The notes beneath the pieces are model-generated. The model saw only the letters and a list, made by a program, of their open reading frames with translations, searched no databases and was not told where the DNA came from. A DNA stretch of 64,000 nucleotides from Camelus dromedarius. Taxonomy: Eukaryota. The stretch spans positions 248,001 to 312,000 of the forward strand of contig NC_087436.1 of NCBI RefSeq assembly GCF_036321535.1, written 5' to 3'. A program made the translations under genes and the position numbers. Below, one piece after another: positions 1-64,000 of this stretch (the stretch's first letter is position 1; each line of letters starts with the position of its first letter).

Positions 1-454
1 CAGGGGTAGACAGCAGATGGTGGGCTGTGTGCATGGGGCTGTGTGTGTGGCCTGGCCTCAGCCCAGGTGGGTGCAGGGATATTGTTCATTCACACCAGGC
101 CAGAGGGAAGAGGGACGGGAGATTTTAAAGCGTCAAAGTTAGGAAGCTAAGGCTGGAGAGAAAAGTAGGAAGGTGCACTTGCCTGGCCACCATGGAGCCC
201 GCCGGCGACGCTGGTCCCTTGCATCAGGGGAGACTGGCAGTTGACTGGCCAATGGGACATCCCCTGCTGTGGTATAGTTTACAGGCAATTGAAGGGATTT
301 TGACAGGTAATTTTAATCCAATAGTTGTCACTTTCTCTGCGGGAGATCATGTCCAAAGTCATGGTGAATCTGGCAGGGTTCCTGCCTGAACTCCATCCTG
401 GGACAATAGAGGACCCACCCAGGAATCATACTCTTAGCTCTCACCCAAAGGCAC

Positions 455-884
455 TGTAATAAAGAAGAACAAATCTGACTCCATATTGGATGTGTGCCTT
501 TTCCTTTAACCCTCTGCCGTGTTTTCTAGGCTTACTCTTGCTAGCTCTGCACCTTTTGTAAAACAATGTTGCCTTTAGCCTGAAATAAACAGAAGATCCT
601 ATTCTCAAAACTCTGACCTTTAAGGATATTAACACTTTTGCACTCCTATAAAGATAACAAGTTGCAGAATAGAAAAAGTTTGTTTTGTTGCAGGTTTTAC
701 AGGAACACCATGATCTGACCCACGTGGACAGCTGCAAAGGATTCCAAAGAACAAAGTAATCCTACACCAACAAGTTTGCAAGAACCAACCACAGCCTCTC
801 CCCTATTTACTAGAAAAGGAGCCTAAAGTCTGACTTGGGGAAGATGGTTCTCCAAGATATTAGTCTGCCATTATCTTGGTCTGA
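455..884 (+). mobile_element. ERV solo-LTR, 3'-truncated (same family as 885-1167, 49744-50264, 50920-51403)
   Basis: Begins TGTAATAAAGAAGAACAAATCTGACTCCAT. Colinear with the near-complete copy at 50920-51403 (shared AAATCTGACTCCAT, CTCTGACCTTTAAGGATAT, GATAACAAGTTGCAGAA, CTGACTTGGG blocks). Lacks the 3' end. Confidence 0.8.
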
Positions 885-1167
885 AGCTGTCTACGTAGAC
901 CAGGTCATAGTGCCTCTGTAAAACCTCTAATAAAACAAAAGTTATTTCCTATTCTGCAACTTGTCATCTTTATATAAGTGCAAAAGTGTTAATATGCTTA
1001 AAGATCAGAGCCTTGAAAACAGGCTCTCCTGTATATTTCAGGCTAAAGGCAACATTGTTTTACAAAAGGTGCAGAGCTAATAAGATTAAGCCTAGAAAAG
1101 AGGGCACAGGGTTAAAGCCAAAATGACCGATCTTCTATGGAGTCAGATTTTTTTCTTTTTTATTATA
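885..1167 (-). mobile_element. ERV LTR, 5' part only, inverted relative to 455-884
   Basis: Reverse complement begins TATAATAAAAAAGAAAAAAATCTGACTCCAT and aligns to ~455-735 and to 49980-50264. Confidence 0.8.
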
Positions 1168-1169
1168 CT

Positions 1170-2155: not shown

Positions 2156-2249
2156 CAATTTTCAAAGATAATTTTTCTTTAGTAACATGAATTCAAAATA
2201 ATCAATATGTCATCAAGGGATTTTCAGAAGTGACCTGCCCTGGGCCCGA

Positions 2250-2412
2250 AAAATACACAAACATAAATACACACATATACACATAAATATATACACACAT
2301 ACATACAGGAAAAGAGACAGACAGACTGAAACACAGAGAAGCAGGGGGACAGAGAAACAGAGAGAGAGACAAAACAGAGAGAGAGGCACTGAGAAACAGA
2401 GACAGAGAGAAG
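2250..2412. repeat. (CA/TA)- and (GA/GACA)-rich simple repeat
   Basis: Visible ACATATACAC and AGAGACAGAG runs. Confidence 0.85.
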
Positions 2413-3312: not shown

Positions 3313-4844
3313 ATGTTCTGCTGCATCCCACTATCCCGAGGCCGCAGCTCCCGGAAAGCCCGCAGCGAGGGGCTGTACCAACGCTGCCGGCGCTGGGTCA
3401 TGTCTCACCCAAGATTCCTCTGGACTTTTGGCCAGAGAGACCCAAAGGTAACACAGGGAGGCCCAGAGCAGGCCCGCCCAGGCCGGGCCACCACTCAGAT
3501 CCCACCCAGGTATCCCCACGGCCCCGTCCTGGCTGGTGGAGGTGGAGCAGTCATGCTGGGGATGGTTTTCTGCCTCAAGCAAGAGCAGTTCAGAGGCCTG
3601 GTGGGCCGGTCACATCCACAGCCCAGGGCAAAGCTGGCTGGCTGGGATGTGGAGAGCCAGGGAAGGGTCCTGCTGCCCAAGGTGGAGCCCATGCATTCTG
3701 GGTATGTCTTTTCCCTCCCGGGTGTCTGAGCTGAACAAAGTCTCGGTCTGATCTGGCAGCAGAGGGTCGAGTGGACAGAAGCAGGAGTGTTCCTGGCCGG
3801 GCAGGGCTCTGAGACTTCCAGGCCGGGTCAGCTGCTGGTCACTGTCATTGCAGAACTAGATACCATATATTGAACAGCAGCTGATGAATAAGAATACCAG
3901 CGCCCCCTCCCCAAATGAAGGGCTGATGTGCCACTCTTCTGAGGGCCAGCGCAGTATCCAGGTGGGTCTGAATAATGAGGGGTCCCCTCCACCATGGCCC
4001 AGGAATCAGTGGGGCAGGCCTCCGACCCAGACAACACCCAGGGCTCCCCCCAGGGACCTCTCCGGGGCAGACGGGTTACTCAGCACACCCGGCTCTGACC
4101 TGGAGCACCGTGCCCACCTCGCTGCAAGTAAGGTGGAGGACCAGGAGCCCCCGAAGCAGAGCCCGAAGGTCAGAAAGGCAGGGCTGGTGCATGTGTGCAG
4201 GTGGGGGAGGGGAGAGGGCTGGGCCACACAGGGAGGTGTCCCCAGAGGCTACCGTTGGGACCAGAGCAAAAAATGGCCTCAGACCACCTGTCTGGAAGAA
4301 TTCAGTCACAGAACACATCGTGTGGGCACTTTCTGGGTGGGAGCTGTCTGGAAAGCTCTGGGAAGGTTTCTGTCTTTAAAGAGGCATATGGAAAAGGAGT
4401 CAGGTGGATAAATTTTTCCTCTCACAGCATAAGCTCTTCCACAAGTCTTAAAACACTCTCCACATCCAATAGTTACAGAGGAGGCAGGGGCAGGGGAAGA
4501 TGTCAGAGACCAAAAAAAGGACGATCTGGATCCAGCAGGAGACCCCGAGCTCCCTCCTGCCACTCCTGCAGCTCATCCTGAACTTGCATCTGCACCTGGA
4601 CTGCTGGGCAACGGAGAACCAGTTCAGACATCACCACCCCCTGGGGCAGAGCCCCCTCTGCACCCACCCACACCTTCTTCTACAAAATGTACTCCAAAAT
4701 CCCACCGTCAGTCCCCCCCCCAAACTTGCTGTTCCTTCCGCTGGAGATGTTTTTGTTTGGTTTTCTTTAGTTTCCTTTCTTTGTTTCACATCATTTATGG
4801 CATCCTTTATTTTTCTTTTTAGAGTTTCATGTAATAAAATATAG
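3313..4844 (+). pseudogene. CDRT15-like / RALGDS-derived multi-exon pseudogene. Exon 1 3313-3447, exon 2 3854-3961, partial exon 3 ~4133-4190, terminal exon ~4428-4844
   Basis: Exon 1 reads MFCCIPLSRGRSSRKARSEGLYQRCRRWVMSHPRFLWTFGQRDPK|GTAACA. This resembles the CDRT15 N-terminus (MFSCCFPTSRG...[22 protein letters not shown]), and the match continues through the donor (VTQGGPEQARPGRATTQIP vs VPQDSPGQALAGQATPEIP). Exon 2 (108 nt, AG/GT) N*IPYIEQQLMN...CHSSEGQRSIQ resembles RALGDS exon 2 (SSTQEIGEELIN...HHGGNKGQRWLG), with an in-frame TAG at 3857. KVRKAG resembles RALGDS KVRTVKAG. The last exon is Pro/Ala/Glu-rich, ends in a hydrophobic stretch and has AATAAA at ~4833. Confidence 0.72.
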
Positions 4845-5790
4845 ACTTTTCCCCTTTTAAATTGTGCAATTCATGAGCATTATGGGCATTGACAATGTTG
4901 TGAGACCATCACTAACATCTAGTTTCACACTATTTCTTTCCTCAAAGTGAAACCATGGATCCAGAGAGCGCACTACCCTCCCTCCTCGCCCAGCCCCTGA
5001 CAACCCCAAGTCCTCTTTCCTTCTGCGTGTCTTTACCTCTGCTGGGTGTTCCCTTTCAATGAAACTTTATGATAGTTGGCTTTTTGTGCCTTCCCACATG
5101 TTTTCAGCAGGGGCTGCTGGTTTTTCAGTTTTCACTTGAAACAGCATTTTTATTATTTTAAGGGGATATACAGGGGGATTAAAGATGTGATGTACAAAAT
5201 GAAGCCCTTTTAGTAACTCTGTGCATAATCTCAGGGTAGACACTGCTGTTCCCCTTGTGACACCACAGCCAGAAGACATAAGGGAGATGCTTAGCTCTTC
5301 CTGTGGCAAAAACAAAACGAAACAAATCAAAAAAATTAGCAAAAGCCCAGAAAAACTGCTTGAAAGACAAACCACAACCTGGAAAAAGCATTGCTCATAA
5401 CTCAAGTTTGGAGAAAGTTTTCCCATCCCTGTAGTCCAAAAATCTTTCAAAACGCAGTGTTCTAAACAGAAACAGAACAGACATGGTCAGTTCCAATGAG
5501 AGACAATGAAGGTGGCCAGTGTGTGTTAGAGATGCTTGACCTCTCAGGTGAGAACACAGGCAGATGGAAACACTGCAGAGACAACACCGGTCACCATAAC
5601 ACTGGCGGGTCTTTAGTCAGGTGACAACCAGCCCTGGTGACAATGTAAGCAGGCAGAGGCTCCAGCAGATCCCCTGGAGGGAAGAGTGAAGGGACGCTCC
5701 TCTTCAGGAGAACAGGGTGCAGGACGCATCAAAGGGCCACAGACGCATCTCTTCCCCAGAAGTTCTGATCCTTACAGTTCATCCCACTAA
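4800..5790. repeat. Copy 2 of the ~1-kb direct segmental repeat; its first ~280 bp look like an antisense L1 3' end
   Basis: Aligns to 1170-2155. Confidence 0.92.
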
Positions 5791-6449
5791 AATCCTTACA
5801 CACCTATTCAAAGATGCCTTTTCAACGGTGTTCATCACAGCACTGGTTGCAACAGTCGGAATTAAAGCAACACTAATGTTGATGGAGAGGGGATTGGGTC
5901 CACTCGTTCTGGTTCATGTGGATGAATGAATGCTGTGAAGTTGGAAAAGTGGGTGTCTGGTCTCAACCCAATGTCAAGGGAGGCCTCAGGGTGGAAGTAT
6001 GCAGACCCACTGTCTGCATCCAGGGTCCCATCTGCATGACCACATATGTGTGAAATCAGTATAGATGTAAACTGATCTGATTGTGAGTGTGCGAGAGACA
6101 GAGATGGAGAAAGACATACTGAGAGACACAGAGACTGAGACATAAGCACCAAATCATTCATGACAGTCACCTCTGTGGGTGGGAATTACAAATCTCTTCT
6201 CTTTTAGGCAGTATTTCAATTTTTCATACTGTGTCTTTATTACTCTACTAATCCTAAAAGGATTAAAATCCTATGTTACTGTGACCCATTCATTGCTCAT
6301 CTATGGAGTAATTAAAGTACATTAATCCTATTTTTAAAGGAATATAAAGCCTTCTCAGGACTCAGTTCCATGTCAGCTCCGTGGCAGTAGAGGTTCTCCA
6401 GGAGGTCGTGTCTCTTCTGAATCAGCATCCAATAGAGGTGAGGAAGAAG

Positions 6450-14965: not shown

Positions 14966-17354
14966 TCATAACCACCTTTGGCATTATTCTAAATCAATTT
15001 ACAATTGAGGGTCTCAGTGTCCATTGTTTTATCCTCTCAGAAGATCCTGACTTCGGAGCGTGAAGCAGAAGCCCTTCGTCGCTGGAGACGGTCTTTGCCA
15101 CTTACAGTCTCAGTAGAGCCAACATAAATGCTCTGGACCTTTGGAAGTGCAGTTCCAGAGCATACCTGGGAGCTCACATCCTATATATCTAAACATTTTA
15201 AGTGCAGTAGGTTCTAAAGTCCTGCCTTTACAAATATATATTTATTATAAGCAGGAAGGCCAGGTTCAAAATTAGAATTCCCAGACACAGGGGAGTCCTG
15301 CAAAGAAAGTGAGCGTGTGGGGAGAGCTGATTCCCAGACTCTGATCACTAGCCTGACCCTTTTCTTCCCAATGCTGGGTCCATCCCTTGCCATAAGGGGC
15401 CTTGGATGTGCACAGGGGGACACTCAGATTTCACGTCCGGGCTCTGCCTATAACCTCCATGCAAACAGCTGCCCTTTAGTCTCTCTGTGAGTCCTGGGTA
15501 TCTGAAATCCGGGGAGAGCCAGTGCAGGCACTAGAAATGGGTCAGGGGCTGCTGAGGCAGGGCATTCGGGGTCCTGGGTTTCTAGAGCACGGGGTGGAGC
15601 CAACGACCATGTCCCCTTGGTCCTGCTGACGCCACCCGATGGAGGGGGTGGCCAGAGGAAGTGTCAAGGCCAGGGGGACAGTCTACAGTGCAGGACCGAG
15701 GGCAGCGTGTCCCCTTGCAGGGGTCTAAGGCGAGAAGCCCTAAGGAAAGTTCTGAGGAGGCTGTAATGTATCATCATTCCCATTAATTAAAAAAAACAAA
15801 AGCTTACCACAGGCGTGCGTGGGAAGGGTTTTGTTCTAACAAGGGAATGCACTTGCCAACGTCTGGCCATAGAGGGCTGGTGGGCTTGCCAGGTTGACGA
15901 GGAACCGAGAGGCCGTTATTCTCCACTGGGTCTAAACACTGCCTGAATTCCTCCAGGTGACACTTAAATGCAGTGAGACATGGAACCCTCTCAATTTGTT
16001 AAAATATTCATGGTGAGCCATGCAACTCTCTCCTCATTCTTGGCTACGAAAGCACGATAAACACAGGTGGGAATATCATCAGCCTGTTGGTTGGTTCACT
16101 GTCCATCTGGTGCCCCCTCTTGTAGGAGGCTTTATCACATCACCCAGGGCTGATCCATCTCACGATCACAGCTGATTTTCTGCAGGTGGCATCACTTGCT
16201 GGTGACACGAAGGAGACATGTTAGCCACCTCCCAAACACTGAGGCTTCTCCTGGGAGGAGCCTGCAGACCACCAGTCCAGCCTCTGCAAAATGATGCTCC
16301 TCAGTGTCACTTCCGGCTTGCTGCCCTGGCCTCTAACTCTGGCCAGAACCTCGCTGGATTGTCGATAAATGTCACCCATGCACCACGTCTAAGCTTCGCG
16401 TCCAGATGTGACCATGGTTCTTCTTTTCTTCCCATCGATGGATTGTTTGATCTTTGTGTAATCGTGTCGGCAGGAAGGCCAGTACCGCCCTCTTGAGGTC
16501 TCCCAGAACCGCCTCTCTCTGTAACTGTCCTAGCGCCCCAGGGGATCGGGTCTGAAGCCTGGCACTCAGACACGAGGATGACAGCTGGAGAGATAGGAAT
16601 CCACTCCTGCTGTGGCTTCTACTGAGGCTCGATGTGGCCATAGAAACGGATCCCACAGGCCCTGACTTCACTTGACTCACTGCAGGGATGCTCCCAAACT
16701 GCCCCATTCCCCCCAGAGACCGAGGGCTTTCGGCTTGTTCCCGAAAGCCCCACCCCCGAGGGGGCACTGGGTCCAGTGGAGCGTCCAGCCTGGTTCCCCG
16801 CCAGCCCTTAGGGCTTTTGTGGGGCCTGGAACATCAACTACCCTCCCCTTAGGGGCCCGTTTGTCCTTTCCAGCCAACAGACCTAGGTCATAAGCACTTT
16901 AACTCACCTGAGGGTGTTTTCCTCACTTCAGGGGCAGTGAAGACGGGGCTTCTTCACACTCCAAGTGCCCCCGGTCTGGATGCAGACAGTCTGGCTCTCC
17001 ACCCAGTCCTGCAGTTCCCGGCCACACCTGCTGCTGGTCACTGAGTCTGTGCTGTGTTCTCTTCCAGGACAAGAGGTGCACTCTGCCCCCAACCCCGCCC
17101 CCACCAGCGGTGGCAGAGGCGGCGGACAGGCAGGTGAGATGGGGCCTGAGACAGTGCCCACAAATCAGTGCCCCAGAGGCCGCTGGTGACTAGAGGGACC
17201 ACGCGGCAGAAGCCAGCATGGGAAGGGAGGAGGAAGAAGGTTCAGGATAAGGAGATGAAAGGGGGAATGGATAGCACCGTGAGTACCTCGACCATGAAAG
17301 GGAAGAGAAAAGACAGTGACAGCTGGAGCGGTGTTGGTGTTAAAAGCTGAGGGC

Positions 17355-17780: not shown

Positions 17781-19559
17781 GGAATATTGACAGAGACATA
17801 CTGTGTCCTCTTTCCCTATCCTGTTCTTGGCCTCTTCTCATAGGAAATAACCATCATCCTGACTCCTGGCTTACCCTTCTCTTGTGTTATTTTCACACAC
17901 ACAATATTTAAGATCAGTTAAAACAAATGAACTGCAGGTACATGCAATGAAATGGATGAATCATACACTCTATGTTAAATTGAAAAAGTAAGCCCTAGAA
18001 GGTGGCCTATAGTGTGCTATGCTTTTAACTGTGTATATATATGACAAATAAACTCACTAAATTAAGAACAACTACAGCTAGAGTCCAGGTGGGAGAGAGA
18101 CAGATAAAATTTGAGGTGAGCAGGTTTGCTGCAGGTGAGCGAGATCCTTTCCAGTAACATGTCATTCTCTCTGAAGCAGGAGGCAAGGCCATCTGCTGGG
18201 AGTCAGGGAAGAGACAGAGGGAAGCTTCAAGGTGTGCAGAGAGCAGAGAACGTTAACACCACTGAGTGATAAGTGGGGAAATGTGCTCACTAGAGAAATC
18301 CTGGAGGATTGCCTGGCAGCGGCAACATGGTGGGAATTGATTTGTAGTCTTAGAAACCTGTGCTGGGAGAGCCTGCTGCCTGCAGGCTCAGAGCAAGTAG
18401 AGCTGGGTGAACCGAGATGGAAGTCGGCCTGGTGAGGAACTGAAAAAGTCAAGGCTCAAGGGGGTTTTGTCTCTCATAAAGAGAGTGCTGACTGTGGATG
18501 CAGAGCTGGAAGGTGGGGAAGTGGAAGTTAGAGGAACGAAGACAGGCAGGAAAGCAGAGTCAGTGCATGATGCCCCAGTGAGGGTGAAGGAGTGCCAGGG
18601 AGGCTGGTGGAGAAGCAGCTTGACGGCTAGAGGTGGGCACTTAAAGGAGAGGGCATGGAACTTGGGTGGAGACATGCCCGGGTATGAGCCCGGGGGTAGG
18701 GTGAATTGGGGGTGGCTGGCTCAGGCTGACGGAGAAGAAGACCCTAAAATGACCACACTGGGTGGAGGAGGGAGAATGAATTTTGACGTCTTGATGGTAG
18801 GAGGGGAGGCAATACAGAGCTGGTGGTCCAGGTGTTCCTGACTGAGGCAGATGAGCAGGGAGGCCAGGGTGGCAGGCACTGATAGGAAAGGATCCGTGTT
18901 TTCCAGGTGCTCCCACTAGGGGAGGAGCAATCATCTGAAGGTGGAAAGTGAGCACAAGGAGGCCAACCCAGGCTCCTGGTCAAACTGGGGTTGTGAGGGG
19001 GCAAAGTGTCAACTCCAGAGATGGTTACCCAGGAAGCAGGGACCACGGGTGAAGTGAGGGGACACTCAGAGAAGAGAGGGAGAAGAGTCTTCTGGGTGTA
19101 GGGGGAAGAGAGGCCCCAGGACAAAGGAGCACAGGGGCACAGTGATGAGGATGGACTGGCTCTATGGTGACACTGAAGGGATGGCTGGATCTTTGTCCTG
19201 AGGGCTTAGGTTGGGGGGGACTACTGGCCTCATGAGGATCCCCTCTCAGCAGCCTGGACAGACGCTCCCGCTCCTGAGGTCTGTGTGGCCACCACTGTTC
19301 CCGGAGGGGCCCTGCCTCCATCTTTTCTTATCAGACTTTCCTGCCCAGCCCCCGACTGCCAGCGAGGGAGCCTGGGCCTCGAAGCTGCTTCCCGTGGAGG
19401 GACACAGGCTCCTCGGAGAAGCAGGCTGATCTTAATTTTCTCCGTAACCCAGAGCCTAGCAAAGCGCCAGCCCATATGTGGGCCATGTAGGGGCTCGGAT
19501 ACTTACCAAACTAACTCAAAGCAGTAGAATAGCAGAGCCAGAGGAAGTGATCACTGAGC

Positions 19560-19905
19560 CCACAGATTTCACTGCCCACACCTCCATTCTACAGATGAGG
19601 AATCCGAGACCAAGCGGTGAAGCAGCCTTGGCCTAGGTCACGCTGCTCTTAAATGCTGGCCTGTGTCGGGCATGCCAAGTGATGTGCTGCAGTGAAGGGG
19701 CTGAGAGGGGGCTCTGGGGCCAGACATCTTGGGTTCAATTCCCAGCTCTGCCATTTATTAGCCGTGTGATTAATTAATGTCCTTACCTTTAAAGTGGAAC
19801 TCATAGTGGTGCGAACTCATTGGGTTGTCATGAACACAGCGTTCATGGAACAGCAGGACAGAGTTCTGTAAGGGTTTGCTATTGCTTTGGTTACTATTAT
19901 TATCA
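19560..19905. mobile_element. Two MIR fragments in opposite orientation
   Basis: CCATTCTACAGATGAGGAATCCGAGAC...GGTCAC and CTTGGGTTCAATTCCCAGCTCTGCCATTTATTAGCCGTGTGA match the MIR core. Confidence 0.75.
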
Positions 19906-20989
19906 CCAATTGAACCCTGAAATGAAGAACAAAGGCAGCAAGAATTTTTATTTTAAAGGAGTTTCAAATCCTCTGATGAATGCTTCATTTCATCTATTCA
20001 AGTTTGCATTTGACACTTATTAACAACTACACAATGGATGACTTTTGAGGCACTCTTGCTTCATGTCTTTAATTCTCACTAATGACACAGGCTATTTAAC
20101 AGGCAGCAGTTTCTTTTCCAGGAAGAGGGACAAAAGGTTAAAATGTCTCAGTGCCTCTCGGTCCCCAGTGAGTTGGTTGTGACCTGTCAACCCAGCTTTG
20201 GGGAAGTGCCCGCTCCCCCTGGGCTCGCTGAGCTGCCCCGCAGCCTCCGGGGGCGCCGTACCCCCACACGAATCCAGTCTCTTTGTTCCTATCTTTGTTT
20301 CATATCCCTCAAGGACTGCCCATGCCCCAGGGCCCCATCTGCCCCGCCAGCCTCGCCTGCTGGAATCCAGGACACTATCCTGGGTCTCAACCATCCTCTG
20401 TTCATATGACCGCCCCACTACTCTACATTTTGTCCTACAAGTGTGGGCTCCTGTGGCTCGCCACACAGCAGGGGTCTCCCAGTCCTCCACCTTGGGTAAC
20501 TGCATTGTCCTGCACAGTGCCTAGCGAACCCGTGTGGAGGCAGGAAGAATACAGAACAACAGGTGCTCAGAGGGGCTGCCTTTCCCACTGCAGGGGCCCT
20601 AGAGAGCTTCCTCCCGGCAGGTTATTCACAGGCGCTGAAGCTGTGGAATCTCGATCTCACCAATTTAAAGGGCACCATCACTAATTACACAAGCAATCAT
20701 TTCTTCAGTAGCAAAAGGAGAAAAGACTTTGTTCCCCACCTCCAACTTTTTTCCTCCACCTTCAGATGTTTCTCATCTTTGGACTAGGGTAGAAAGCAAC
20801 TCACAGAATATTATTTTTCAATGTTTTTCCCACTCTGAAGATTGCTTTCCCAGAACCGATGAAGGCTAGAATGGACTTAGCTTTCCTGGACTGAGTATTC
20901 AGAGGCCTGGGGTGGGAAGGGGAGGGGAGAGGGGAGATAACTCAGCAATATTGAACCTAACAGAGACATTACAATGTTCTATTCTAAAC

Positions 20990-22515
20990 AGAAAGGAAGC
21001 AGGGTGCTGTAGAAACAGGAAAACCATAGTTGGAAATGCAAAAACGAGTTACAAGAGAATAAACATAAAGATGTAAAAATGAAAAAGGACATCAAAATAA
21101 AAAAAGGTGGGAATGGGAGAGGGGAACAAGAAAATATAGATTTTTTTCTTTCTTTTTTTTCTTCATTATTCTTAGGATGTGTTGGAGCCTAAGCGATTAT
21201 CAGTCTAAAGAAAATAGATATAGTAATGGGTTGATATATTTGAAGAATAAGGTAACCACAAATCAAAAGCATACAATACAGTCACAAAAAAACCAAAAAG
21301 AAACAAACTCAAAATGGCTTAAAGACTTAAATATTAGACAAGACACTACAAACTTCTCTCAAGAAAACATAGGCAAAACATTATTTGACATACATCTCAG
21401 CAATGGTTTCCTAGGGCAATCTAAGCAACCCAAGCAACAGAAATAAAAGCCAAAATAAATAAATGAGACCTAATTGAACTTATAAACTTTTGCACAGCAA
21501 TAGAAACCATAAGTAAAACAAAAAGACAACTTATGGAATGGGAGAAAATATTTGCAAAAGATGAGACTGACATTGGCTTAATTTCTAGACTATATAAATT
21601 GTTCATACAACTTAATAAGAAAAAAATAAACAACCAAATCCAAAAATGGGCAGAACAGCTAAACAAGCAATTCTCCAATGAAGACACACAAATGGCCAAT
21701 AGGCATATAAAAAAATGCTCAGTATCGCTCAATTATCAGAGAATTGCAGCTCAAAACTACATTGTTATCATCTCACACCAGTCAGAATGGCCATCATTCA
21801 AAAGTCCACAAACCATAAATGCCGGAGAGGCTGTGGAGAAAAGGAAACCCTCCTACATTGTTGATGGGAATGTAGTTTGGTGCAGCCACTGTGGAAAACA
21901 GTATGGAGATTCCTCAAAAGACAAAAAAAAAAAAAAAAAAAAAAAAGACTTATCACCTAGTCCAGCAATCCTGCTCCTGGGCATATATCCAGAGGGAACC
22001 TTCATTCCAAAAGATACCTTCACCCCAATGTTCACAGGAGCACTCTTTACAATGGCCAAGACATAGAAGCAAACTAAACGTCCACTGACAGATGACTGGA
22101 TAAAGATGTGGTATTTAGATATAACAGAATATTACTCAGTCATAACAAAGAAGGAAATAAAGTCATTTACAGCAACTTGGATGGAACTGGAGATTATCTC
22201 ACTAAGTGAAATAAGTCAGACAAAGTCAAATATCATATGATATCATTTATATGTGGAATTTTAAAAAAAAGATACAAATGAACTTATTTATAAAACAAAA
22301 ACAGACTCACAGACTTGTAAAACAAACTTAGGAGTTTGGGATTAACAGATACAAATTACTATATGTAAAACAGACAAACGACAAGGATTCACTGTAGAAC
22401 ACAGGGAACAGTATTCAGTATCTTGCAACCTATAATGGAAAAGAACCTGAAAAAGAATAGACTATGTATATTTACAACTTAATCACTATGCTGTATACCT
22501 GAAACTAACAAAACA
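20990..22515 (+). mobile_element. L1: inter-ORF segment joined to ORF2 C-terminus and 3' UTR; internally deleted, no poly-A tail
   Basis: ORF 21533-22066 ([45 protein letters not shown]) is L1 ORF2 C-terminal. The 3' UTR ends at CTGTATACCTGAAACTAACAAAACA. Confidence 0.93.
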
Positions 22516-22799
22516 GCACAGGGAGTGAGTCCTTCTGGGACAAGGCCTCTGTGGCAGTGGCCTCCTTGTCACCGCTCCATCTCACCAGGAGGCCAGGTTT
22601 TTCAGAGGTGAGCGGACATAGAGCTCATACACTTCAAATTGATTTCCCGAAAAATCTATGGAAAAACCAAATTCACCTGCAGTGTGGGAAACATGAGCAG
22701 GGCCCCTAAGCAGACCAACAAACCCAAAGTAAGATGGCCCGTTGTTCAGATCGGAACCAGAACAACGACCACCTGGCCCCAGTTAAATTACCACCTCAC

Positions 22800-24530: not shown

Positions 24531-25050
24531 GGTCCCGGGCAGCTGCACACTTCCGGAGCCCGCTGCCCGCCCCAGAAGCTCAGGCCGGCCCGCGCGGAGC
24601 GCGGCGCCTGTAACCATGGCAACGCCGCAGGGCCATCCTCTAGCGCTTGCGTCGAGTGTCTTCCCGAGTCTAGATGTGCTAGGGCAGAACTTGCGGAGCC
24701 AATGGGAGCCAGGGCGCGGCCAGGACGGAGGTGGGGGAGGCTTATTGGGCAGTCGGGCGGGGCCGCTCGGAAGTCCTGACCTGCAGGTGGCGCCGGGCGG
24801 AGGCTGGGGCGGTGCTGCCACCAGTGGGCGGGGCAGTGGGGCAGCGGGGCAGCGAGATGGGGACACCCACACCTGTCCCTGTGTGGGGATCAGCCTGGGC
24901 TCCGTGGCCTCCGCTTGCACCGGACGTGGACCCAGGCTACCAGTGGGCAAGATAGAGGACTGAGCCCAGGCACGCACGGCTGGCCAGGTAGGGCACCTGA
25001 AGTGCAGATCCGCCAGGCCCGCTGCCGGCCTTGAATACTCGCTGCTAGGC
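24150..25050. promoter_or_regulatory. CpG-island promoter of the POFUT2 copy, probably bidirectional
   Basis: CpG-dense. RFX X-box GTAACCATGGCAAC at 24610-24623, CCAAT at 24699, inverted CCAAT (ATTGG) at 24744, GC box at ~24755, ETS motifs CGGAAGT at ~24768 and ACTTCCGG at ~24549. Plus-strand donor CCAG|GTAGGG at ~24987. Confidence 0.85.
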
Positions 25051-51403: not shown

Positions 51404-52019
51404 CTCCTATCTACCTAGCAAGCTGGGCACTGGATCTGAGGACAGCTCTCCCACACCCAGGGACCTACTGTGAGCCCTTGATGGTTCCACTAGGGTGGGG
51501 TGTGGTTTATTCAGGAGGGATGGGCACTATGCACCAACACTCAGGCAGTCTGCTCTGTCTGGGGCTCTGATCTTGTACCTCCCGCTCCCCACCAGCCCAA
51601 CACCTGGAACAGTGGAGCTAAGACAGAGATCGTGCCTGCCTGTTTCCCAGCGTGTAAAAGGGGAATATGAACTCTTCCCAAGGTAGTTCTGAGCGACAAC
51701 ACCTTCGGGTGCTTGGTTCCCAGAGCAACAGGGAACCCAGCTCCGCGTGGGATCAACGGGTGTGATCCCGTAGGGGTTCTGCAGAGGCCTCGGCTGGAGG
51801 GCTGGACCAGGGAGGGAAAATTTGAGTTGCGGGCCTTGAAGTGTTAGTGAAGGGTACAGAGGCAGGACTGAATTCTGTTTCAGGATGCCACCAGAGGTAA
51901 ACCTTTTTCTCTACATCTCTGCTACTCCCCTCCCCTGTCCAGATCCCTCCCTTCTCTCTGCACTTCCTGTCCATCTGTCTCCCTCCACTTTTCTCCTCCT
52001 CCCCTCCTCCTCCCATCTT

Positions 52020-52830
52020 CTCCCTCCCTCACTTCCGCAGCTTCTCTCACAGAAACCTGAGGATCGCTGGCCCTCCTGGGCATGCGCAGTCAGTGCCAGG
52101 TGGACCGCGGTTTGGAAGCTCCATCTCCGAGCCGGGGATCTGCCCCAAAATCTTCTCAGCTATGTCGCCCGGTAAGCCTTTAGCTCCTGCCCCGGGGCCG
52201 GGGCCTCCGGCTGTGGAAGTGCAAGGTTGGGGGCTCACGGGAAAGGTTCAGGCGGCTGCGGGAGGGCGGTCCACGTGTCACAGCCCGCGAGGGCATGATT
52301 CAGCATGTGTTCAGCTATATTGCTCGGGCCAGGCCCCTCTGCCCGCGCCACCTGCCCCGGCGCCCCGGCCACAGCTGCTCAGGGCCAGGTGTGCACCTGC
52401 CGCCTCTCGCCCCAGCTGGTCTCCCCTCAGTCTGCGGCTGGAGTCCTCTTCCGCTCTCCCGCCCGCGAGTCCTCTCTTCCCGGGCTTCCTCTCCTCAGCC
52501 GCCGGCCCGTCCCCGTCCCAGGGCGGGCTGTGTCCCGGGACGGCGGTGTCTGCGGACCCGGACGGGGCAGCTGGGACTGGGGCTGGCCTCCGAGAGGAGC
52601 TGCAGCCCGCGTCCCCAATCCCCCGCTTTCCCTGCCCCGTGACCCCTGGGCTGCCCTCCTCTCCCTTTCCCGCTCCCTCAGGACCAGCTTGGTGGCGTGG
52701 GCGCTGCTCCCCCGGCTGAGAGCCTCCGGCCGGCCGTAAAGCCCAGCTTGTCCTGGTGAAGTCTGCAAAAGGGAGCGTCAGTGCTGAGGGAGCTTCTGTC
52801 ACCTCCCTCAGTGTTTCTGCCTCAGGTAAG
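52020..52830 (+). promoter_or_regulatory. CpG-island promoter of the TRAPPC9 copy
   Basis: CpG-dense. ETS motif CACTTCCG at ~52030, NRF1-like GGCATGCGCA at 52079-52088, donors CCG|GTAAGC (52171) and CAG|GTAAGT (52825). Confidence 0.8.
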
Positions 52831-53844
52831 TTCCTTGAACACTTTCAGGTGTCATGATGGCGGTGCTTGATGATGTCACGTGGTTTTATACTGAGAGGGA
52901 TTACAGTGTTGAAAGCAGGACTTGGTTCAGTTAAAAATGAGCTGAAGGCATGAGTATGTGACATCCTCCAGGCTTCCCTCTCCCAGGCTGAAACGTGTGA
53001 CCGTTGATTTTAGAAAGATAGTTACAGTCCCTAACTAGCCCAGCCCAGCTTGGGTGTGTTAACAGGAACAGCACCACCAGAGGCGTTGGAGACCTAGGGA
53101 CATTGCAGTCCTAAAGAGCTCCTGGCACACAGTTTGGTTTGTTTTGGTTTTTTCTTTTTCTTAAATTGTGCGGCAGACTAGTTGTATAGAGGGGAAAATA
53201 ATTGTCAAGAGATTATTTTTCATATAACAGCTTTATTGTGATATTGTTCACACACCGTGAAGTCCATCCATTTAAATGGTACAATTCAGCAGCTTTTAGC
53301 ATATTCACAGTGCTGCAACCATTATTATTCCAGAACGTTTTCGTCACTTCAGAAAGAACAGTGGAAATCAATGACCTATTCACCCTTACCCAGTGGTGGT
53401 TCTAAAGAAGTTTCTTGGCTGTTCCTGACCATAAATTAACTTGCTATATTCCATGAAATATCTGGTAGTAATTCTAATCAGAATTGCATTGAATCTGTCT
53501 ATCAAAACAGGAAGAATTAATGTCTTTACGGCATAAACTTCTTCTAACCATGAATATATCTGAGACCCTACATTTTCATCTGTCCAGAGCCTGGCCCATG
53601 GGAAGTCCTCACTAATTTTGGGGCTTGTGAATGATGAGATTCTATACATTGTTAGTTGCAAATGTAGCCTTTCACAGAAGAGAAAAGTAACCTCAGTGAA
53701 GCCAAGTGACTCTCTGATAGTCAGAAAGGGTGACAGTCAGTGCTGGAGTGATACAGTGGACTTGCTGCTTGCAGCCAGAATTTTCCACCACCTACAGCTA
53801 CGGGGATTACAGTGTTCTTTTATTTTTTTAAAGACTTGCTTTTA

Positions 53845-56244: not shown

Positions 56245-56450
56245 TTTTTTTTAATTGAAGTATAGTCAAGTTTACAATGTTGTGTCAATTTCAAGCTGTT
56301 TTTTGAATTTTGAATTAAAAAATATTTTTTGAGGAGGGTAATTAGGTTTTTTTATTTGTTTCATTTTTTAAAATGAGGTACTGGGGATTAAACACAGGAC
56401 TTCATACTTGATAAGCACGTGCTCTACCACTGAACTGTACCCTCCTCCCC
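56245..56450 (-). mobile_element. tRNA-derived SINE (camelid type) with an L1 3'-end fragment in its tail
   Basis: Reverse complement GGGGAGGAGGGTACAGTTCAGTGGTAGAGCACGTGCTTATC...CCTGTGTTTAATCCCCAGTACCTC. Flanked by AAGGCAA repeats (56235, 56451). Confidence 0.8.
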
Positions 56451-59400
56451 AAGGCAAGTTTTCTTATTCATTATTCTGCAGCTTAGGAGTTCAAATAAAT
56501 TGGATAGAAATCCAGATATTTTGATCCCACTGTGGTTCTTTTCTTTATATTCTGCTTAAAGGGGTGTGGAAAGCAGTTCCTTTGTTCATTTCTTTATTCA
56601 GCAGTTTTGAGCACTGTCTTTGCATTAGGGTTTGGCTAGGTGCTTGGAACAGAAAACAAGAAATGACCCTGCTCTGCAGGGGCAGAAAGCCTAGACCAAA
56701 AGCTGGGTAATGTGATCCGACCTACAGTAGCCATGTGCAGGCACTGAGGACAAACTGTACCCCCGTCTTTGCTTGGGCTTCCCTTGCCTTCTGGCTGATA
56801 CACACCAGCTCACCGCAATCCAGAGGGGCCCACAGCCCACAGCAGAGTAAGTATATCGATCTCCTCTCCCCTCTCGGCAGGGGCTGCAACATGAGCACCC
56901 CTGATTATGTGCAGTGCGCTGAGAACGACCAGATTCTCCCCGTGGTGGTCCAAGCCATTGGGATCATCTCAGAGGAGAATTTCTTTTGCATCTATAAGCG
57001 AATCACCTTGGTGAGCCAGATCAGCCTCTGTGGCTCCCATTGGGCACTCTGTATCCACTACTACAGGCACCACTATGCACCCGAGAATGGGTGGGGAATC
57101 TTCCAGACCCACAGCAAGGTAGTGGGCCTTGTCACCATTGCCGACTGCCTCTCGGCCAAGGCCTTCGAGAAGCTCCACGTGCAGAGGAGCTGCATGGCAC
57201 ATCGTTAATGACTCTCAGTTCTTTGTGCTGCATAGGTAGGTAGCCGAGCAGAAGCGCACCGACGTGGCCTTCAATCTACGAGGACTGCAGGCTGGTGGAG
57301 AAGACGATCGAGGACTTCACTGTCTCTCTCTTCATCATGCTCAAGTCCAAGTGGCTGGATAGGGCCCCCAACAAGTCTGGGGATAAGATCCCCCTCCTCT
57401 GCACCTTGTTTGAGAAGGAGGACTTCATGGGATTGGACACAGACAGCAGGTAAGTCTACTTGGAGGCCCGGCCACCCTCGATGTGTGCCAGATTGCTTCC
57501 CTATATCCAGGAAGGGATCATCAAGGAAGAGGGCTGTCTTGTAGCCAAGAGTGGATAGAGGTGCAGCCCGCTGGTTTACAGACATTTAAAAGTGAATCCG
57601 CCTTTGTTTCAGAGAGATCCTTTTAGGGATATTGTGGACACTTACTCCAGCTTTTCAGCCAGGACCCCTGGTGGGACCCCTGGAGTTGCTGTCCAATAGA
57701 GTAGCCACAGCCTCTGATGCTAGGAGAGCTGGGGAGGAGGCTGGTCTGAGCTGACATGTGCTGTAGGTCAAATGAACATCAGATGCTGAGACATCTAATA
57801 AAAGGAATGTAATCTACCTTGTTCCTTTCTATATTGATTACATGTCAAATTGATAGTATTCTACGTACAGTAGAATAAGTAAGATCTGTTCTTAAAATCA
57901 CTTTCTAGTATTTGTTTTTTGTTTGTTTCTTTGTTTACTTTTTAAATGTGGCAACTGGGAAACTTTCTTTACATGGATCTCATTTCATTTCTCTTGGGCA
58001 GCCTGTCCTGCGACAGTCTCATCCCTTTGCTTAGATAAGAGATTCTGAATCCCGAGATGCAGAACGAGGCTCTGGTTGAGCTGGGGGTGGACCCGGTGTC
58101 TCCTGACTCCTAGGCCCAGTACCTGCACTGCTCATGTCCTCTCTTCATGCCCGACAGCCACCATGCCAGGTTAGGTCATCAGAAACACCGCCAGGGATTT
58201 ACGAATGAACTCCTTACACAGGAAAAGGCGTGTCACGGAGTATGGGACAGAGCAGGGAAAGGTTCATCCTCACTTTGTCCCTGTGATTAGGTCAAAGGCC
58301 TCACTTTGCCTCGAAAGTGCAGATGAGCTCTTATGGGCTGCCTACCCACCACCCCCACTTTCTGCTCTGTTTCCCCGTGTGTCCATTGTGCCGTCCCTCG
58401 GGCAGAAGAGGTTGAGATGCCTTTGCCGAGAGGTGGTCCCCCTTTGCTGGGGAAAGTGAGGGAAGTTGTGTACCCCCGGCCTACGGCCTCGGGCCTTGAG
58501 TCTGGAGAGCACTTATGGCGGTCTCACAGGTGACGGTCGGAGAACCTAGCACGTGCAGCCGGGTCCGCTGTGGAGGCGGTGATCTGTGATTCTTGAACTT
58601 GCCCAAGATCAGATCCTACTTTCTGGTTGTTGGTCAGTTGGAGGAGAAGGTGCCAGAGAATTGAAAAAAAGAATGTCCAGACCAGCCCTGTGAGTGAGAG
58701 GCACAGGGGACCTGAGTCCCACCTGCCTGGGGATGCCTGGGGAACTCTGCATGAATTTTCAGTTCCTCCCCGGATATTCCTCTATGGCTTAAGGAACGGG
58801 CAAGGCATGTCGTGGCAATGATCTGTACTTGTCCTCACAAGGCCCTGCGATCTACATGTCCGCACTCCCCTCCTGCTCCTTGGAGATGAGGTGGCAGGTT
58901 TAGGAGCCTGGGCACTGCTGAAGGCACAGCTGCCAGCACCGGGCTTCTCCCAGACTGGCTCCGTTCACCTCACCTGTCACCTCCTGCTGAGCCCCCAGGC
59001 ATTAGTCCAGGTAGGTGCATCAGTGCAACGTAAGAAGGGACCAACTTCTCCCCCTGGACAGACTGTTCGGTGAGCAGTGGATGCCTGGAGCCATGCCCCA
59101 GCCCCATGGCCAGTGCTTCCTCTTATGTCATAGGAGGCACTGGTGACATTTTTGCTCAGCAACTGCTTTGTTCTGAGTCTGTAGACCCACCAGAGAATGC
59201 CAGCTTGTTTTTGCCTTTACAAGTCTGTCCTTGGGATTTGGCAGAGTAGTTGGATGTGTGCTTAGCCCATAGTGTTTGACACTGTCACCATTGTTTACCC
59301 AGAATCTCGTGTACCAGGCATGGTTCTCGGCATCAAAATACAGCAGCGCATTAAACCTCCCTCCTGGTGGGTCTGTCTGTTGTGGTACAAAAAGCACCCA

Positions 59401-62400
59401 GCCAGCATCTGAACGTCAGTGAGATAACGCGGCCAGTGAGCTCGGGTCAAGCACGTTCTTCTCCAGTCACTTTTACTCCATTGTTCCTTTTACTATTCTA
59501 CAGTCATTAATTTATAAAACAACGCTTTAGTGCAGGAGCAGAGCCTAATCCTCTAATGCTACTCTTGGTGGGAGTGAGTAAAACTGTCCAGCCTGAAATG
59601 TGACCACAATTTGTAGCTCAAAAGCTGTCTAGACGCATGTAGGTGGAGTTTTGGTTTGGGGCTCTGACCACGTTGGTGTCCCCTGGCAGCGCTGCTCCAC
59701 ACAGGCCCCTGCCTTCCCGGGAGCAGGAGGTGAGGATGGGTCTCACTGTCCCTGCATCCCTGGCCTCACACACTCACGTAAATTCTTGTACAGGCTGTCA
59801 AATTCATTTTTGTTCTTGTGTGTTTCTAATTTTCGCTTGTTCCTCTTTTCCTTTTTCTTTATTCCTTTTTCTCTTGTACTGCCCTTTGAGTATGTTGTTG
59901 CATCTGAAAAGGTGGGCTGTGCACACCCTGCATTGGAAATAGCTGGATCGCCCTCCATGCTTTCTCCATCGCTTTAAAAACCAAAAACTTAACAGCTGCC
60001 TTGATCCATGTATTATCCTAGACAGCTTTTAATTTTCTAATTTTTTGGAATATTTGCTTTGTTAACACATCACCCACTGGTGTTTGATACCTGTTAAAAT
60101 CCTTGCTTTGAGGAACCTGTTTAGTCCTCCTCATATTTGGTGACGAATGCGCACTTATTAAATTTGTTCGTTTGTTTTGAAGAAGTGAGATGGGAATTGA
60201 TTTAGGCGGCTGCTGAAGGATTCTTTTCATGGAGTATTTAAACTTCTAAAGTCAAAGTCTGCAGCACCTTGCTCGATATCTGCTTTTACACAAAAGTGCT
60301 CAGCACGCGGTTCCTGGCTGTCGCTGTGTGACGTGCGTGATAGCCCTTCTTGGCCGGTGGTCACTGGTGAGGAAGTGGCATGCTCGGGGGTGAGCAGCTG
60401 CAGGGTACGCTGTTGGAGGAAGCAGTCACTTTTTTTTTTTGCATTCAAATTCCCCTATGTCATTTACTTTACTTTGCCTTCATAAAGGGGCAGTATCGGG
60501 TCCAAAATCCATGCCACTCTTTTGTTCCCTGTACGAGGCTGGTTTTTCTGAGTATCAGGACAACATGGCCTTCTCCGAAGAGGCTGGCTTACCTGGATCT
60601 GGTGGACACAGTGACCTCTAAAGGGGACCGTATGTTACACTCTGCTTCATCCAGTGGGCATTCAGAACTGGGTCTGTGGTTTGCCTCAGCAGCCGTGGAG
60701 GCCTCCCTGCACTGGCCTTTACTTTTAACCCACGTTGGCAGTAAATGGCTGATTCAGTGTCTCTTGCAGCTGACGTCCACCACTGACGGCCATGTCGTTA
60801 CTTTTCGGTAGTGAGACCCCAATACCCTAGTCAGCCTTGAAGGAAGATGCTTTGGCCGACCAAACCTTGCATTCTCACCCCTACCATGGTTCATCTCACC
60901 CAGGGGAAGGGTTTGGCCACCACCATAATGCTGACCTTGAGGCTTTGTTTCTCCTTTCATGCTCTGGTCCAAATGTCGACACTGCGTTTTTCACTGACTT
61001 GGTCTTGCTTGAGACAGGCCAGAATTTATGAAAGAGTCCACCACATTCTGGGTGGGGAACAGAACAGAAATAAATGTCGCAAATAGAAGGAGTCTAGGCT
61101 GTCCGGGTTGGCAAATGCAGGCTGGGATCTGTGATGGCTGGGCTGTGCCCTGGACACAGGCCTTTCCCGTGGCTCCTGAGAGCCCAGGGGTCGGAGTGAG
61201 AACAGCCTTGCCTGGGTTCCTCCATTCTCTTCTGCTCACTGGCAGGTGTGTCTGCTAATTAGGAGCTCCCCCAGACCTCGGGTCCTTCAAAGCTCAGACC
61301 ATGGACGAACCTTGAGTCCCTTCTCCTGGGCCTCCTGTGTGAGAATACAGTGCCTTCTGAGGTGACCAGCGGCAGGAGATGCCTCCTCCTCCAGGGAGCA
61401 CCATTTGGAGGACTGTGACTCACTGCACCATGCTGTGAGCTTATGGGGTGACGGCCATGGTCCCTGCAGAACCAGACTTGAGATGGGCTTAGCAATGGAA
61501 ATAACAGGACTGATTCCAGGGCAGGGCTGGTGGGAGGGAACAGGGGATATTGAATGTGACCTCAAACACCTAGGTGGGTGATGGTTCTGTTAGTTAAATG
61601 GGGAGCCTGGGAGGTACCTGCCAGGAATTGAATTCCAGAGTAAATGGTGGACATGAGGCATTTTTAAGATGCCATTTGTCATCCAAGTTAGGACTTCAAA
61701 GAGGCACTCGGGTCTATGAGCCTGGGGCTCAGGTGAAGGTGCCGGACTAGAGACACACGTTGGGATTTGTCCTTCTTAGCTGGAGTTCACAGCCTTACAT
61801 GTGGGTTAGCTCTTCTCAAGAGGTGCAGACTGAGGCTGAGGGAGGGCAGGGCTGTGCCTCGGTTGGAGGAAAGCCCAGATAATGCAGCTTTGGTGTGTCA
61901 GTCAGTGGCATTTGGGATTTTCAGAGCAATGCCATTTATCCTTAAAGGGCCGGGTGGTGGGCAGGGCCAGCCAGGATGAAATATAAAGGGAGGGTCGTGG
62001 CCACGTGTGCGTCTTGGGAAGATGCAGAGGCTTCAGGGTCCGGGAGGGGAGACTCCTCAGAAGCTGGAGTTGGATTGGGGAGTGGGGAGAAGGTAGTCAC
62101 ACTTACCTGTGACGGTGGGAAAGAGTCCTAGGGAGTCCCGACCCTACCGGACTCTCTTTCCCATGAACAGAAGGCAATTAGACAGAGGATCTGAGATGAA
62201 AAGGGATGGGTGCTGTGAGGGGAGCCAACCTGGAGAATGGTGCTTGGACAGTTCTGGAATAGTCTTCCTGCAAAATAGAGTTAAAAAAACACAGACTCTA
62301 AAGAATATTGACAGTAACTGAGGAGGAGGCAGTTTTTCTGGCCTCCTAAGAGTAAGTCATGTATACGGGGATACACAGAAGAATCGGGCAGTCTCTTGCG

Positions 62401-64000
62401 GGGGCTTGATCCTTACCAGAGGCAACAGTGCAAGTTTAAAGGGGGAGAAGGGCAGCGGAGGTAAACTAGCCAGGCCTTGTGTCAGGTACCAGTTGGCCGC
62501 CCTAATTGCGTGTTCCATTCACATCCATCCCTCCCATGTGGGCGGTGGCAGCCCCCTTTTGCGGATTGACAAGACTTCTCAGAGGGGTTAAGGTATCGGT
62601 CCATTTAGCGGCTAGTAAATGCTGTAGCAGGATTCAAGCTGGGCCTTGTCAGACTTAAAGGGCATGTTTTATCTACTAATTCCGGTACCTCCCTGTTGTA
62701 CCTGGAATGGTGAAGTGGGTCAGTTTTGGAGCCTTTCAGAAAAAGTGTGATTTAAGTGCCTCAGGACTGTTTCACAAAGCTCAGTGTTCTTTGATTGTTC
62801 GGAAACAAAGCAGTGCTTTATGCCCCACCGATGTAAGGTCTTACTCCTTTGACGATGACGTGGTTGCAAATGACATACAGGTGCAAAACCAGACTTAGCA
62901 GCTTCTGAAGGGAAACTCTCCAGTTCTTCCTTGATCCGCTGTCTTCTGCGGGATGTAACTCTGCTGCAGCGTAAGCCTGAGTTTTCCGTATGGATTGAGG
63001 GTTTGATAACCAATGTTAACATAAAACGATCAGATGGAGAAAATCGACGTTGGCAATTTATTTTTGGGTATCATTAGACAAGATGCACTATCGGTTAATG
63101 GCCCATATAACGTATGAAATTGAGTACAGAACATTGCATTTCTTACTTTCTACTTAGAACTGTGTTCCATTGTAAGGTTGTCTGCTTTGAAAATTCAGCT
63201 CAGCCACTAGGGCGCCTGTCAGTGTGTTGGTGTGATTGCATTTACACAGTGCATGTAATCTGGGCTTCCTCAACCCCAAACACTCCAGTGCAGAATCATG
63301 GGCTGTAGCAATCACTTAGTTATACAAATACTTCTGAAACTATGATTCCAAAAAAAAAAAAAAAAAAAAAAAGGAGAGAGAGATTGCCTTTATCATAGTT
63401 CCTTTGGAATTAAACTGCAAACTGTTGTTGAGCAGTTCTGGCTTGCTTTATATATGAATATATACATTTCTTTGCATGTAACTTGGTTTTTGGACTAGAA
63501 CACCAAGCTCTTGTTTTCCATGAGCCACAAAAATCGTAGCCAAATGACACACGTATGAAACATTTTATTCCTTTTTTCTGAGAAAGGATACTTAAATTTT
63601 GAACTTAGTCTCTGATTTTGGTTTTAGCTCTTCCCTACCCTCTTGTCATCTCACTCCTATTTCCCACGTGGCCTCCAAGATGTCATGGTCTCAAAGGAGT
63701 GGGTGGACAAACACCATTTGGTCACCATGCAGTGCTGCTCTAGATGAAGCCCAGCCCAGAACTAAAGGACATTATCAGAGAGGACTTCCTGGAAGAAATG
63801 GGCTCTACATACAGTTCTGAGGACAGAGTAAGAGTCAGCCAGGAGAAGGAGTCAAGAAGGTGGCTCAGGTGGCAGGTGAAGCCCGGGCAGAGACATGGAG
63901 GCTTGTGGGGTGGGGACCCGGGGAAAGTGCCCTCTGTGGTCCAGGGTGAATGGTGCCCTTACTGGGGAGGACAATGGAGAGGACCTGGGAGGAGGGCTTT

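Follow-up and report, generated by a model that had tools for sequence, protein, structure and literature searches.

A probable high-copy segmental-duplication family of camelids carrying decaying pieces of POFUT2, MRAP2 and TRAPPC9

Several kinds of described system come close to the locus analysed here. For primate pericentromeric and subtelomeric regions, a two-step model of mosaic duplications has reportedly been developed by Eichler, Horvath, Bailey and colleagues. Primate genomes also hold core duplicons, among them the NPIP, NBPF, GOLGA, TBC1D3 and RGPD families, and pachytene PIWI-interacting RNA (piRNA) clusters can contain pseudogene pieces. Here we describe a stretch of 64 kb from the dromedary, Camelus dromedarius (C1:248001–312000, where C1 is the contig NC_087436.1), hereafter called the window. 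We consider it likely that the window is part of a camelid family of segmental duplications, specific to this lineage and of very high copy number, which carries three decaying gene pieces derived from POFUT2, MRAP2 and TRAPPC9.

A related observation exists for another camelid. In a 2026 paper on alpaca satellite DNA, multi-Mb repeat-rich domains are described that hold many fragmented copies of NEK10, ATF5, FMN2, uS3m, ACTB and ABHD17A (PMC13751797). The authors read these blocks as duplication followed by degeneration, and report them as absent or reduced in camel assemblies. As in the window, many fragments of unrelated genes are found together in a camelid genome. The alpaca blocks are, however, chromosome-confined and POFUT2 is not mentioned there, whereas copies of the POFUT2 and TRAPPC9 pieces described below together spread over 64 contigs. 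In full-text searches of the literature for POFUT2 or TRAPPC9 with camel or alpaca, we found unrelated or incidental mentions only and no description of a POFUT2-MRAP2-TRAPPC9 family.

The window had previously been read from its bare sequence (in the following called the sequence-only reading) as a mosaic hub of gene pieces. We located the gene pieces by tblastn of full-length proteins against the window. POFUT2, MRAP2 and TRAPPC9 follow each other along the window in the order in which the earlier reading had named them.

1 to 64000, no strand assigned: copy of a segmental-duplication block, with homology running past both ends of the window.
22801 to 23034, minus strand: copy of POFUT2 exon 2 (Pfam; tblastn, 74–75% identity to camel and human POFUT2, E about 1e-30).
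23251 to 25297, minus strand: promoter and exon 1 of POFUT2 together with intron 1 (alignment of 2191 columns with the parent gene, C2:121612580–121614725, 76.3% identical).
24427 to 24489, minus strand: remnant of the coding part of POFUT2 exon 1, with two in-frame stops and the donor GTAAAC kept.
38254 to 38642, plus strand: copy of the last coding exon of MRAP2, about residues 78–208 (tblastn, 66–79% identity, E 2.8e-44).
56891 to 57450, plus strand: copy of the first coding exon of TRAPPC9, residues 1–195 (tblastn, 64–74% identity, E 2.6e-54).

As had been noted from the sequence, none of these pieces retains an intact frame and many splice sites are intact. In the POFUT2 piece, the stops in exon 1 are joined by a deletion of six residues in exon 2, which otherwise has an open frame with acceptor and donor kept. 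The MRAP2 exon has one frameshift and keeps its acceptor and stop codon, and the TRAPPC9 exon has one stop as well as frameshifts and keeps its acceptor and a GTAAGT donor. All six splice sites that we checked were canonical, namely the donor of POFUT2 exon 1, acceptor and donor of POFUT2 exon 2, the MRAP2 acceptor, and acceptor and donor of the TRAPPC9 exon. No later POFUT2 exons were found in the window by tblastn with full-length proteins.

We also scanned stop-to-stop open reading frames (ORFs) of the window against Pfam, covering 450 of the 467 ORFs with at least 58 residues (the other 17 lie at 61.6–64 kb) and 300 of the 519 ORFs in a composition-filtered list of shorter ORFs that also held these 17, the 300 coming from 1–39 kb only; 100 ORFs were rescanned at E-values up to 1. 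The sole real match in the scanned ORFs was O-FucT (PF10250), whose profile positions 1–78 of 326 matched at 22786–23136 on the minus strand (E 2.4e-7). The MRAP2 part present in the window falls outside the MRAP Pfam domain, which matched in the genome at two parent genes only. A weak TRAPPC9 Pfam match at 27209–27394 on the minus strand (E 0.0012) was rejected as a chance match of the kind whose number is expected over about 750 ORFs; a word-based search found no homologue for this frame, and full-length TRAPPC9 had no match there.

A processed pseudogene or retrocopy is an intronless copy of an mRNA. The pieces in the window are of another kind, with homologous intron and promoter and no joined neighbouring exons. 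On either side of POFUT2 exon 2, the sequence can be aligned with parental introns. Because intron flanks and promoter align to the parent, splice sites are kept and only single or adjacent exons occur, we conclude that the pieces are copies of genomic DNA and not retrocopies.

Searching the dromedary's own genome (2.31 Gb in 171 contigs), as the sequence-only reading had advised, we found the intact parents along with many copies, hence the pieces in the window are not the sole copies of these genes. The parents are unlinked and lie on other contigs, as that reading had supposed from the human genes. Parental POFUT2 lies at C2:121.60–121.61 Mb, and its exons at C2:121601217–121612429 (minus strand) account for three of 93 matched places, the other 90 being copies. 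The MRAP2 parent lies at C6:63.145–63.155 Mb with its last exon at C6:63145103–63145492 (minus strand), and the TRAPPC9 parent at C20:2.92–2.93 Mb with its first coding exon at C20:2920148–2920732 (plus strand), which is 93% identical to mammalian TRAPPC9 and has no stop.

All three pieces are abundant. We found at least 149 copies of the TRAPPC9 exon at 56–64% identity (783 first-look candidates), about 130 places with the MRAP2 last exon besides the parent (counted by hand from 150 matched stretches; 267 first-look candidates) and at least 90 copies of POFUT2 exon 2 (172 first-look candidates); as these are numbers among listed copies, they do not firmly rank one piece as the focal one. The window's own MRAP2 copy appeared in this search as C1:286343–286639. 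Stops interrupt 133 of the 149 listed TRAPPC9 copies (hand count).

The pieces are also arranged in a fixed manner. For 45 of the 90 listed POFUT2 copies, a listed TRAPPC9 copy lies 27–39 kb away in divergent orientation; the corresponding spacing in the window is 34.1 kb. In contigs that we read by hand, MRAP2 copies lie between POFUT2 and TRAPPC9, e.g., in C72 at 11067, 26683 and 42504. Order, orientation and spacing thus kept in half of the listed copies argue that the mosaic was assembled once and copied thereafter. Segments from unlinked donors lie side by side while the donors themselves are still present elsewhere, and the assembled mosaic has spread as a unit, which are the marks of a mosaic block.

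The module is part of a much larger block. The window is collinear with C3:118905124–118969055 (minus strand) at 99.36% identity, with C22:4237435–4301353 (minus strand) at 99.14% and, over the compared span 1–59417, with C22:4889630–4949000 (plus strand) at 99.12%. Homology between C1 and C3 continues for at least 10 kb on either side at 99.4–99.6%, giving a span of at least 84 kb. We surveyed further copies with four 1-kb probes at 3.3, 24, 35 and 52 kb of the window, for each of which the best 40 places were scored out of 160–477 first-look candidates (477 for the probe at 35–36 kb), with identities of 89–100%. At 21 of the 40 places scored for the 35-kb probe, counting the window itself, the full set of four probes recurs with the spacing expected and 92–100% identity, and these places are thus collinear over at least 49 kb; another four hold three of the four probes. 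By hand comparison, an extra copy of the TRAPPC9 exon lies about 63–66 kb past the 52-kb probe in C1 (at 365,796) and in 16 collinear copies, so the common block probably exceeds 115 kb. The majority of copies are found no further than a few Mb from a contig end.

The window therefore recurs elsewhere in the genome over more than 1 kb at 90% identity and above. It holds gene fragments and CpG islands with just scattered interspersed repeats and is not a transposable element, which makes it a segmental duplication. The earlier notion that the pieces are duplications at the DNA level fits the introns, splice sites and promoter found here. The locus is, however, no special hub that collects them: the mosaic is a fixed module repeated many times, with the window as one of at least 21 collinear copies.

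Several side observations concern the surroundings of the block. Older copies of the module flank the window on both sides at the same end of C1, with an MRAP2 copy at C1:28979 and TRAPPC9 copies at C1:44821 and C1:365796. The unplaced contig C150 matches C1 at near-equal offsets from the start (44621, 252224, 272848, 283867, 300878 and 366675), so that a paralogous block shared by C150 and C1 may be about 366 kb long or longer. No TTAGGG arrays were found in the outermost 1.2 kb at the start of C1, the end of C3 and the start of C4, a result that weighs neither way on a subtelomeric position. An array of telomere repeats is present at C3:48–971, the end opposite the block copy of C3, and eight TTAGGG units have about 38,400 matches genome-wide.

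In the reading that we propose, the core of these blocks is a compound module in which parts of three genes are present as copies of genomic DNA: from POFUT2 the 5′ end with CpG-island promoter and exons 1–2, from MRAP2 the last exon, and from TRAPPC9 the 5′ end with its first coding exon and a CpG-rich region. In a first step, donor segments would have been seeded into an acceptor region, where the pieces were united once. In a second step, the mosaic would have been copied as a block; the module, and later the blocks exceeding 84 kb in which it is embedded, would then have reached many chromosomes, for the most part no more than a few Mb from a contig end. The gene pieces are pseudogene fragments in decay, and their kept promoters and splice sites probably yield, as a by-product, some chimeric RNAs that are largely non-coding.

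The arrangement resembles the primate two-step mosaic blocks in that unlinked, intron-bearing fragments lie side by side, their parents are intact elsewhere and the mosaic was later copied between chromosomes as large blocks of high identity. It differs in the lineage, camelids, in the gene set of POFUT2, MRAP2 and TRAPPC9, and in the copy number per piece (about 90 to more than 150), which is far above that of most human mosaic blocks.

A number of observations count against the duplication-and-decay reading. The copy lists hold the best-scoring 40–150 places and do not include the window's own POFUT2 and TRAPPC9 copies, so that the copy numbers are floors. Among the 90 listed POFUT2 copies, 39 have no listed TRAPPC9 partner, which is uninformative, and six show other spacings. 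The primate blocks are pericentromeric or subtelomeric, whereas the camelid copies are placed here relative to contig ends only. Of the five sources named in the sequence-only reading, three were borne out by significant tblastn matches (POFUT2, MRAP2 and TRAPPC9) and two were not found. For the FN3-like piece, there was no fn3 match in 100 ORFs, mostly from 25–38 kb, at E-values up to 1, and for the CDRT15/RALGDS-like piece no RasGEF or RA match in ORFs from 1–20 kb. Pfam is a weak test in both cases, and these misses carry little weight because Pfam also missed the genuine MRAP2 and TRAPPC9 exons.

Also on this side stands the substitution spectrum. The ratio of transitions to transversions is below one for the window against its 99% copies (139:163, 202:227 and 200:223). 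At 210 sites, the two C22 copies agree with each other against the window and C3, and the ratio is equally low there (100:110). It is 113:67 (1.7) in older copies and 83:32 for the parent against the copies. Some of the recent divergence among the 99% copies may thus be assembly or polishing noise; the low ratio stems either from such noise or from recent mutation with an unusual spectrum in the blocks. Taken further, the mosaic junctions or the copies themselves could stem from misjoined or over-duplicated contigs, and it would agree with such an artefact that many copies are located near the ends of contigs and on small unplaced ones. We nevertheless consider it highly improbable. The copies share one architecture across identity classes that are graded from 89 to 99%, the 210 sites common to the C22 copies point to real descent, and predicted proteins of other camelid species hold the same exon combinations. 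A dromedary association study, based on another assembly, likewise pairs the names TRAPPC9 and POFUT2 beside single markers (PMC10357240).

The predicted proteins just mentioned raise the question of coding capacity. The closest proteins to the POFUT2-like frame of the window are short predicted ones from Camelus ferus, C. dromedarius and Vicugna pacos. Predicted proteins of 230–240 residues in three camelid species join POFUT2 exons 1–2 to exons that are found downstream in the window, and some of the camelid models read another frame of POFUT2 exon 1.

19788 to 19919, minus strand: exon of alpaca POFUT2-like models (86% identity to residues 145–188 of model P0085, 82% to P0108; acceptor ..TTTCAG, donor GTAAGG).
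18742 to 18879, minus strand: terminal exon of alpaca model P0085 (87% identity; acceptor and stop codon present).
18083 to 18196, minus strand: last exon of the Camelus ferus model P0001 (with acceptor and stop codon).
16931 to 17164, minus strand: terminal exon of alpaca model P0108 (85% identity; acceptor not obvious in the window copy).

The exons at 19788–19919, 18742–18879 and 18083–18196 have canonical splice sites, and these gene models hint at spliced chimeric RNA from such loci. Since alpaca and camel models use the same exons, the family is suggested to be older than the split between camels and South American camelids, a dating that relies on common exons and not on a tree. Of the words sampled from 16.5–25.5 kb of the window, a share of 0.22–0.25 was present in four public RNA runs from one study and of 0.25–0.29 in eight presumed RNA runs, against 0.39–0.44 in likely DNA runs; we did not count this as evidence of transcription.

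From such models one could derive that the POFUT2-derived part is a young protein-coding family with chimeric frames kept by selection, comparable to the genes of primate core duplicons. In addition to the predicted proteins, this would be supported by the alternative frame of exon 1, which is open over 80 residues in the window, and by the absence of a stop in 68 of the 90 listed exon-2 copies (hand count). We aligned exon 2 with 150-bp flanks from the parent, the window and 19 other copies, i.e., 20 of the at least 90 copies, chosen across score classes. The pooled proportions of non-synonymous (pN) and synonymous (pS) differences among these 20 copies were 0.067 and 0.147, a pN/pS of 0.46 that would also agree with selection. 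From the open frames together with this ratio, a low level of constraint on the POFUT2-derived frame is conceivable.

The same alignment argues for the opposite. The parent differs from the copies by 27–32% in the flanks of exon 2 and by 13–17% in the exon; over promoter and intron 1, aligned separately, the difference is 24%. Among the 20 copies themselves, the mean divergence was 8.6% in exon 2, not below the 7.7% in the intronic flanks. Neutral decay of the exon-2 copies fits these sequence data, because the exon is no better kept than the intron and pN is near the intron rate; the high pS, and with it the low pN/pS, probably results from fast CpG-rich third positions. The models differ between species in frame and terminal exon, the window has lost six residues from exon 2 and its POFUT2 frame in exon 1 is broken, and with profile positions 1–78 of 326 only, the catalytic part of the enzyme is lacking. 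A coding family is hence improbable in our view, and we keep to decaying duplicates.

The CpG-rich regions bear on another alternative. By the sequence criterion used here (GC content >0.5, ratio of observed to expected CpG >0.6, at least 200 bp), CpG islands are present at 24001–25000 and 52001–52500, the latter with GC 0.67 and a ratio of 0.60. Of the three CpG-rich, promoter-like regions that had been proposed from the sequence, those at 24–25 and 52–53 kb hence stand. The one at 34.4–36.5 kb does not, being a tandem repeat with a low ratio (0.26–0.58 over 34–36.5 kb).

24001 to 25000, minus strand: partly eroded CpG island from the POFUT2 promoter (GC 0.61/0.71, observed/expected CpG 0.64/0.65).
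52001 to 53000, plus strand: CpG-rich stretch that precedes the TRAPPC9 exon by 4 kb (GC 0.67/0.62, observed/expected CpG 0.60/0.54).
34377 to 36248, no strand assigned: GC-rich tandem repeat with units of about 470–600 bp that are 65–67% alike, no clear CpG island (GC 0.65–0.70 and observed/expected CpG 0.46–0.58 at 34501–36000).

The region at 52001–53000 is presumed to be a copy of the TRAPPC9 promoter; the best 40 places of the 52-kb probe match at 89–99%. The POFUT2-derived island has 69 CpGs per kb compared to 111 per kb in the parent island.

In line with the sequence-only reading, which saw a candidate chimeric RNA or piRNA-precursor locus, such regions could make the locus a functional source of germline RNA, in which the divergent CpG promoters of POFUT2 (minus strand) and TRAPPC9 (plus strand), about 27 kb apart, would drive chimeric transcripts that are processed to piRNAs matching POFUT2, MRAP2 and TRAPPC9. 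Both promoters have stayed CpG-rich (0.64–0.65 and 0.54–0.60) despite the divergence of 24% from the parent, with 45 of the 111 parent CpGs kept in the window. That the islands have eroded just in part would fit continued germline activity and is a further point against plain decay. Retained splice sites and the linkage of POFUT2 exons to downstream exons in camelid models agree with this possibility as well. However, 26 of the parent CpGs are now TpG or CpA, and only 41% are kept where about 65% would be expected from a site identity of 81%. Parent CpGs were therefore lost faster than other sites, which argues against full protection from methylation, and the gene pieces decay like intron. 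Pachytene piRNA clusters are defined by dense small RNAs of 26–31 nt, with 1U bias and strand asymmetry, that arise from a long precursor in adult testis. In its sequence, the locus resembles such clusters in combining gene fragments with CpG-rich promoters across tens of kb; it differs from them, as they are discrete loci, in belonging to a family with 20 or more near-identical members. We thus judge a germline role unlikely and prefer occasional by-product transcripts from decaying copies.

A bolder combination of these alternatives would treat the POFUT2-MRAP2-TRAPPC9 module as a camelid core duplicon. It would have driven chromosome-end blocks to well over 100 copies, both divergent promoters would be active in the germline, and the chimeric transcripts would be piRNA precursors matching three dosage-sensitive parents, or else would encode fast-evolving POFUT2-derived genes. 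The likeness to primate core duplicons would lie in a focal, gene-derived segment that most blocks share and that is spread over many chromosomes, and it extends to kept promoters and chimeric gene models. Core duplicons carry expressed, rapidly evolving gene families under positive selection; the camelid pieces look neutral or decaying, to judge from 20 exon-2 copies, and most TRAPPC9 copies contain stops. We regard this combination as doubtful, and a segmental-duplication family with decaying gene pieces is the reading we retain.

Further observations concern the POFUT2 island and its copies. Copies of the island in the 92% identity class occur as inverted, palindromic pairs 26.7–33.2 kb apart in C42, C72, C6, C169 and C15. 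Within single copies, the island probe can be 3–7 percentage points more diverged than its flanks, as at C6:82355193 (35-kb probe, 99%) versus C6:82366198 (24-kb probe, 92%); the same excess is found in C158, C150, C23 (32.3 Mb), C15 and C96. Such a pattern points to a patchwork origin, to gene conversion or to a faster decay of the CpG island.

The remaining features of the window are repeats.

21467 to 22063, plus strand: interspersed repeat fragment, matching at 68% a repeat next to the parental MRAP2 exon.
29180 to 29251, plus strand: tRNA-like head of a short interspersed element (SINE; Rfam tRNA, ARAGORN).
56374 to 56444, minus strand: second tRNA-like SINE head (Rfam tRNA, ARAGORN).

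Further copies of the repeat at 21467–22063, which we take to resemble the end of LINE-1 ORF2, lie at 11.4–11.9 and 53.9–54.1 kb. The two SINE heads scored 42.1 and 32 bits with the Rfam tRNA model, and the same element adjoins the MRAP2 parent exon. The blastn matches that link the window to the parental MRAP2 locus were rejected as gene homology, as they represent interspersed repeats present in both. The window also contains a 1-kb direct repeat (1176–2150 and 4808–5791, 76% identical). Pfam matches to Vitelline_membr at about 2.0 and 5.7 kb (E 3e-3 and 2e-4) lie in Cys/Pro-rich frames of this repeat and were dismissed, being probably an effect of composition.

The feature is thus of an ordinary kind, a segmental duplication, at an unusual scale, and this touches on existing camel data. 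In the dromedary association study, markers at Chr14:31,079,211–246 are annotated with TRAPPC9 and POFUT2, and neighbouring markers bear the names of further unlinked genes, namely DDX27, ARFGEF1, CSE1L and SUPT20H (PMC10357240). This hints at mosaic duplication blocks as the site of association signals, which are then named after the parent genes. The markers annotated with TRAPPC9 and POFUT2 most likely sit in the pseudogene modules, because the true POFUT2 and TRAPPC9 genes on C2 and C20 are unlinked. Care is therefore needed when reads are mapped, variants called or genes named in regions that carry the module. For the family as such, a lineage outside of the primates has built a mosaic gene-fragment module and amplified it to a copy number comparable with that of primate core duplicons. 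This offers a second system for studying the spread of modules of this type and the question of whether the promoters in them remain active.

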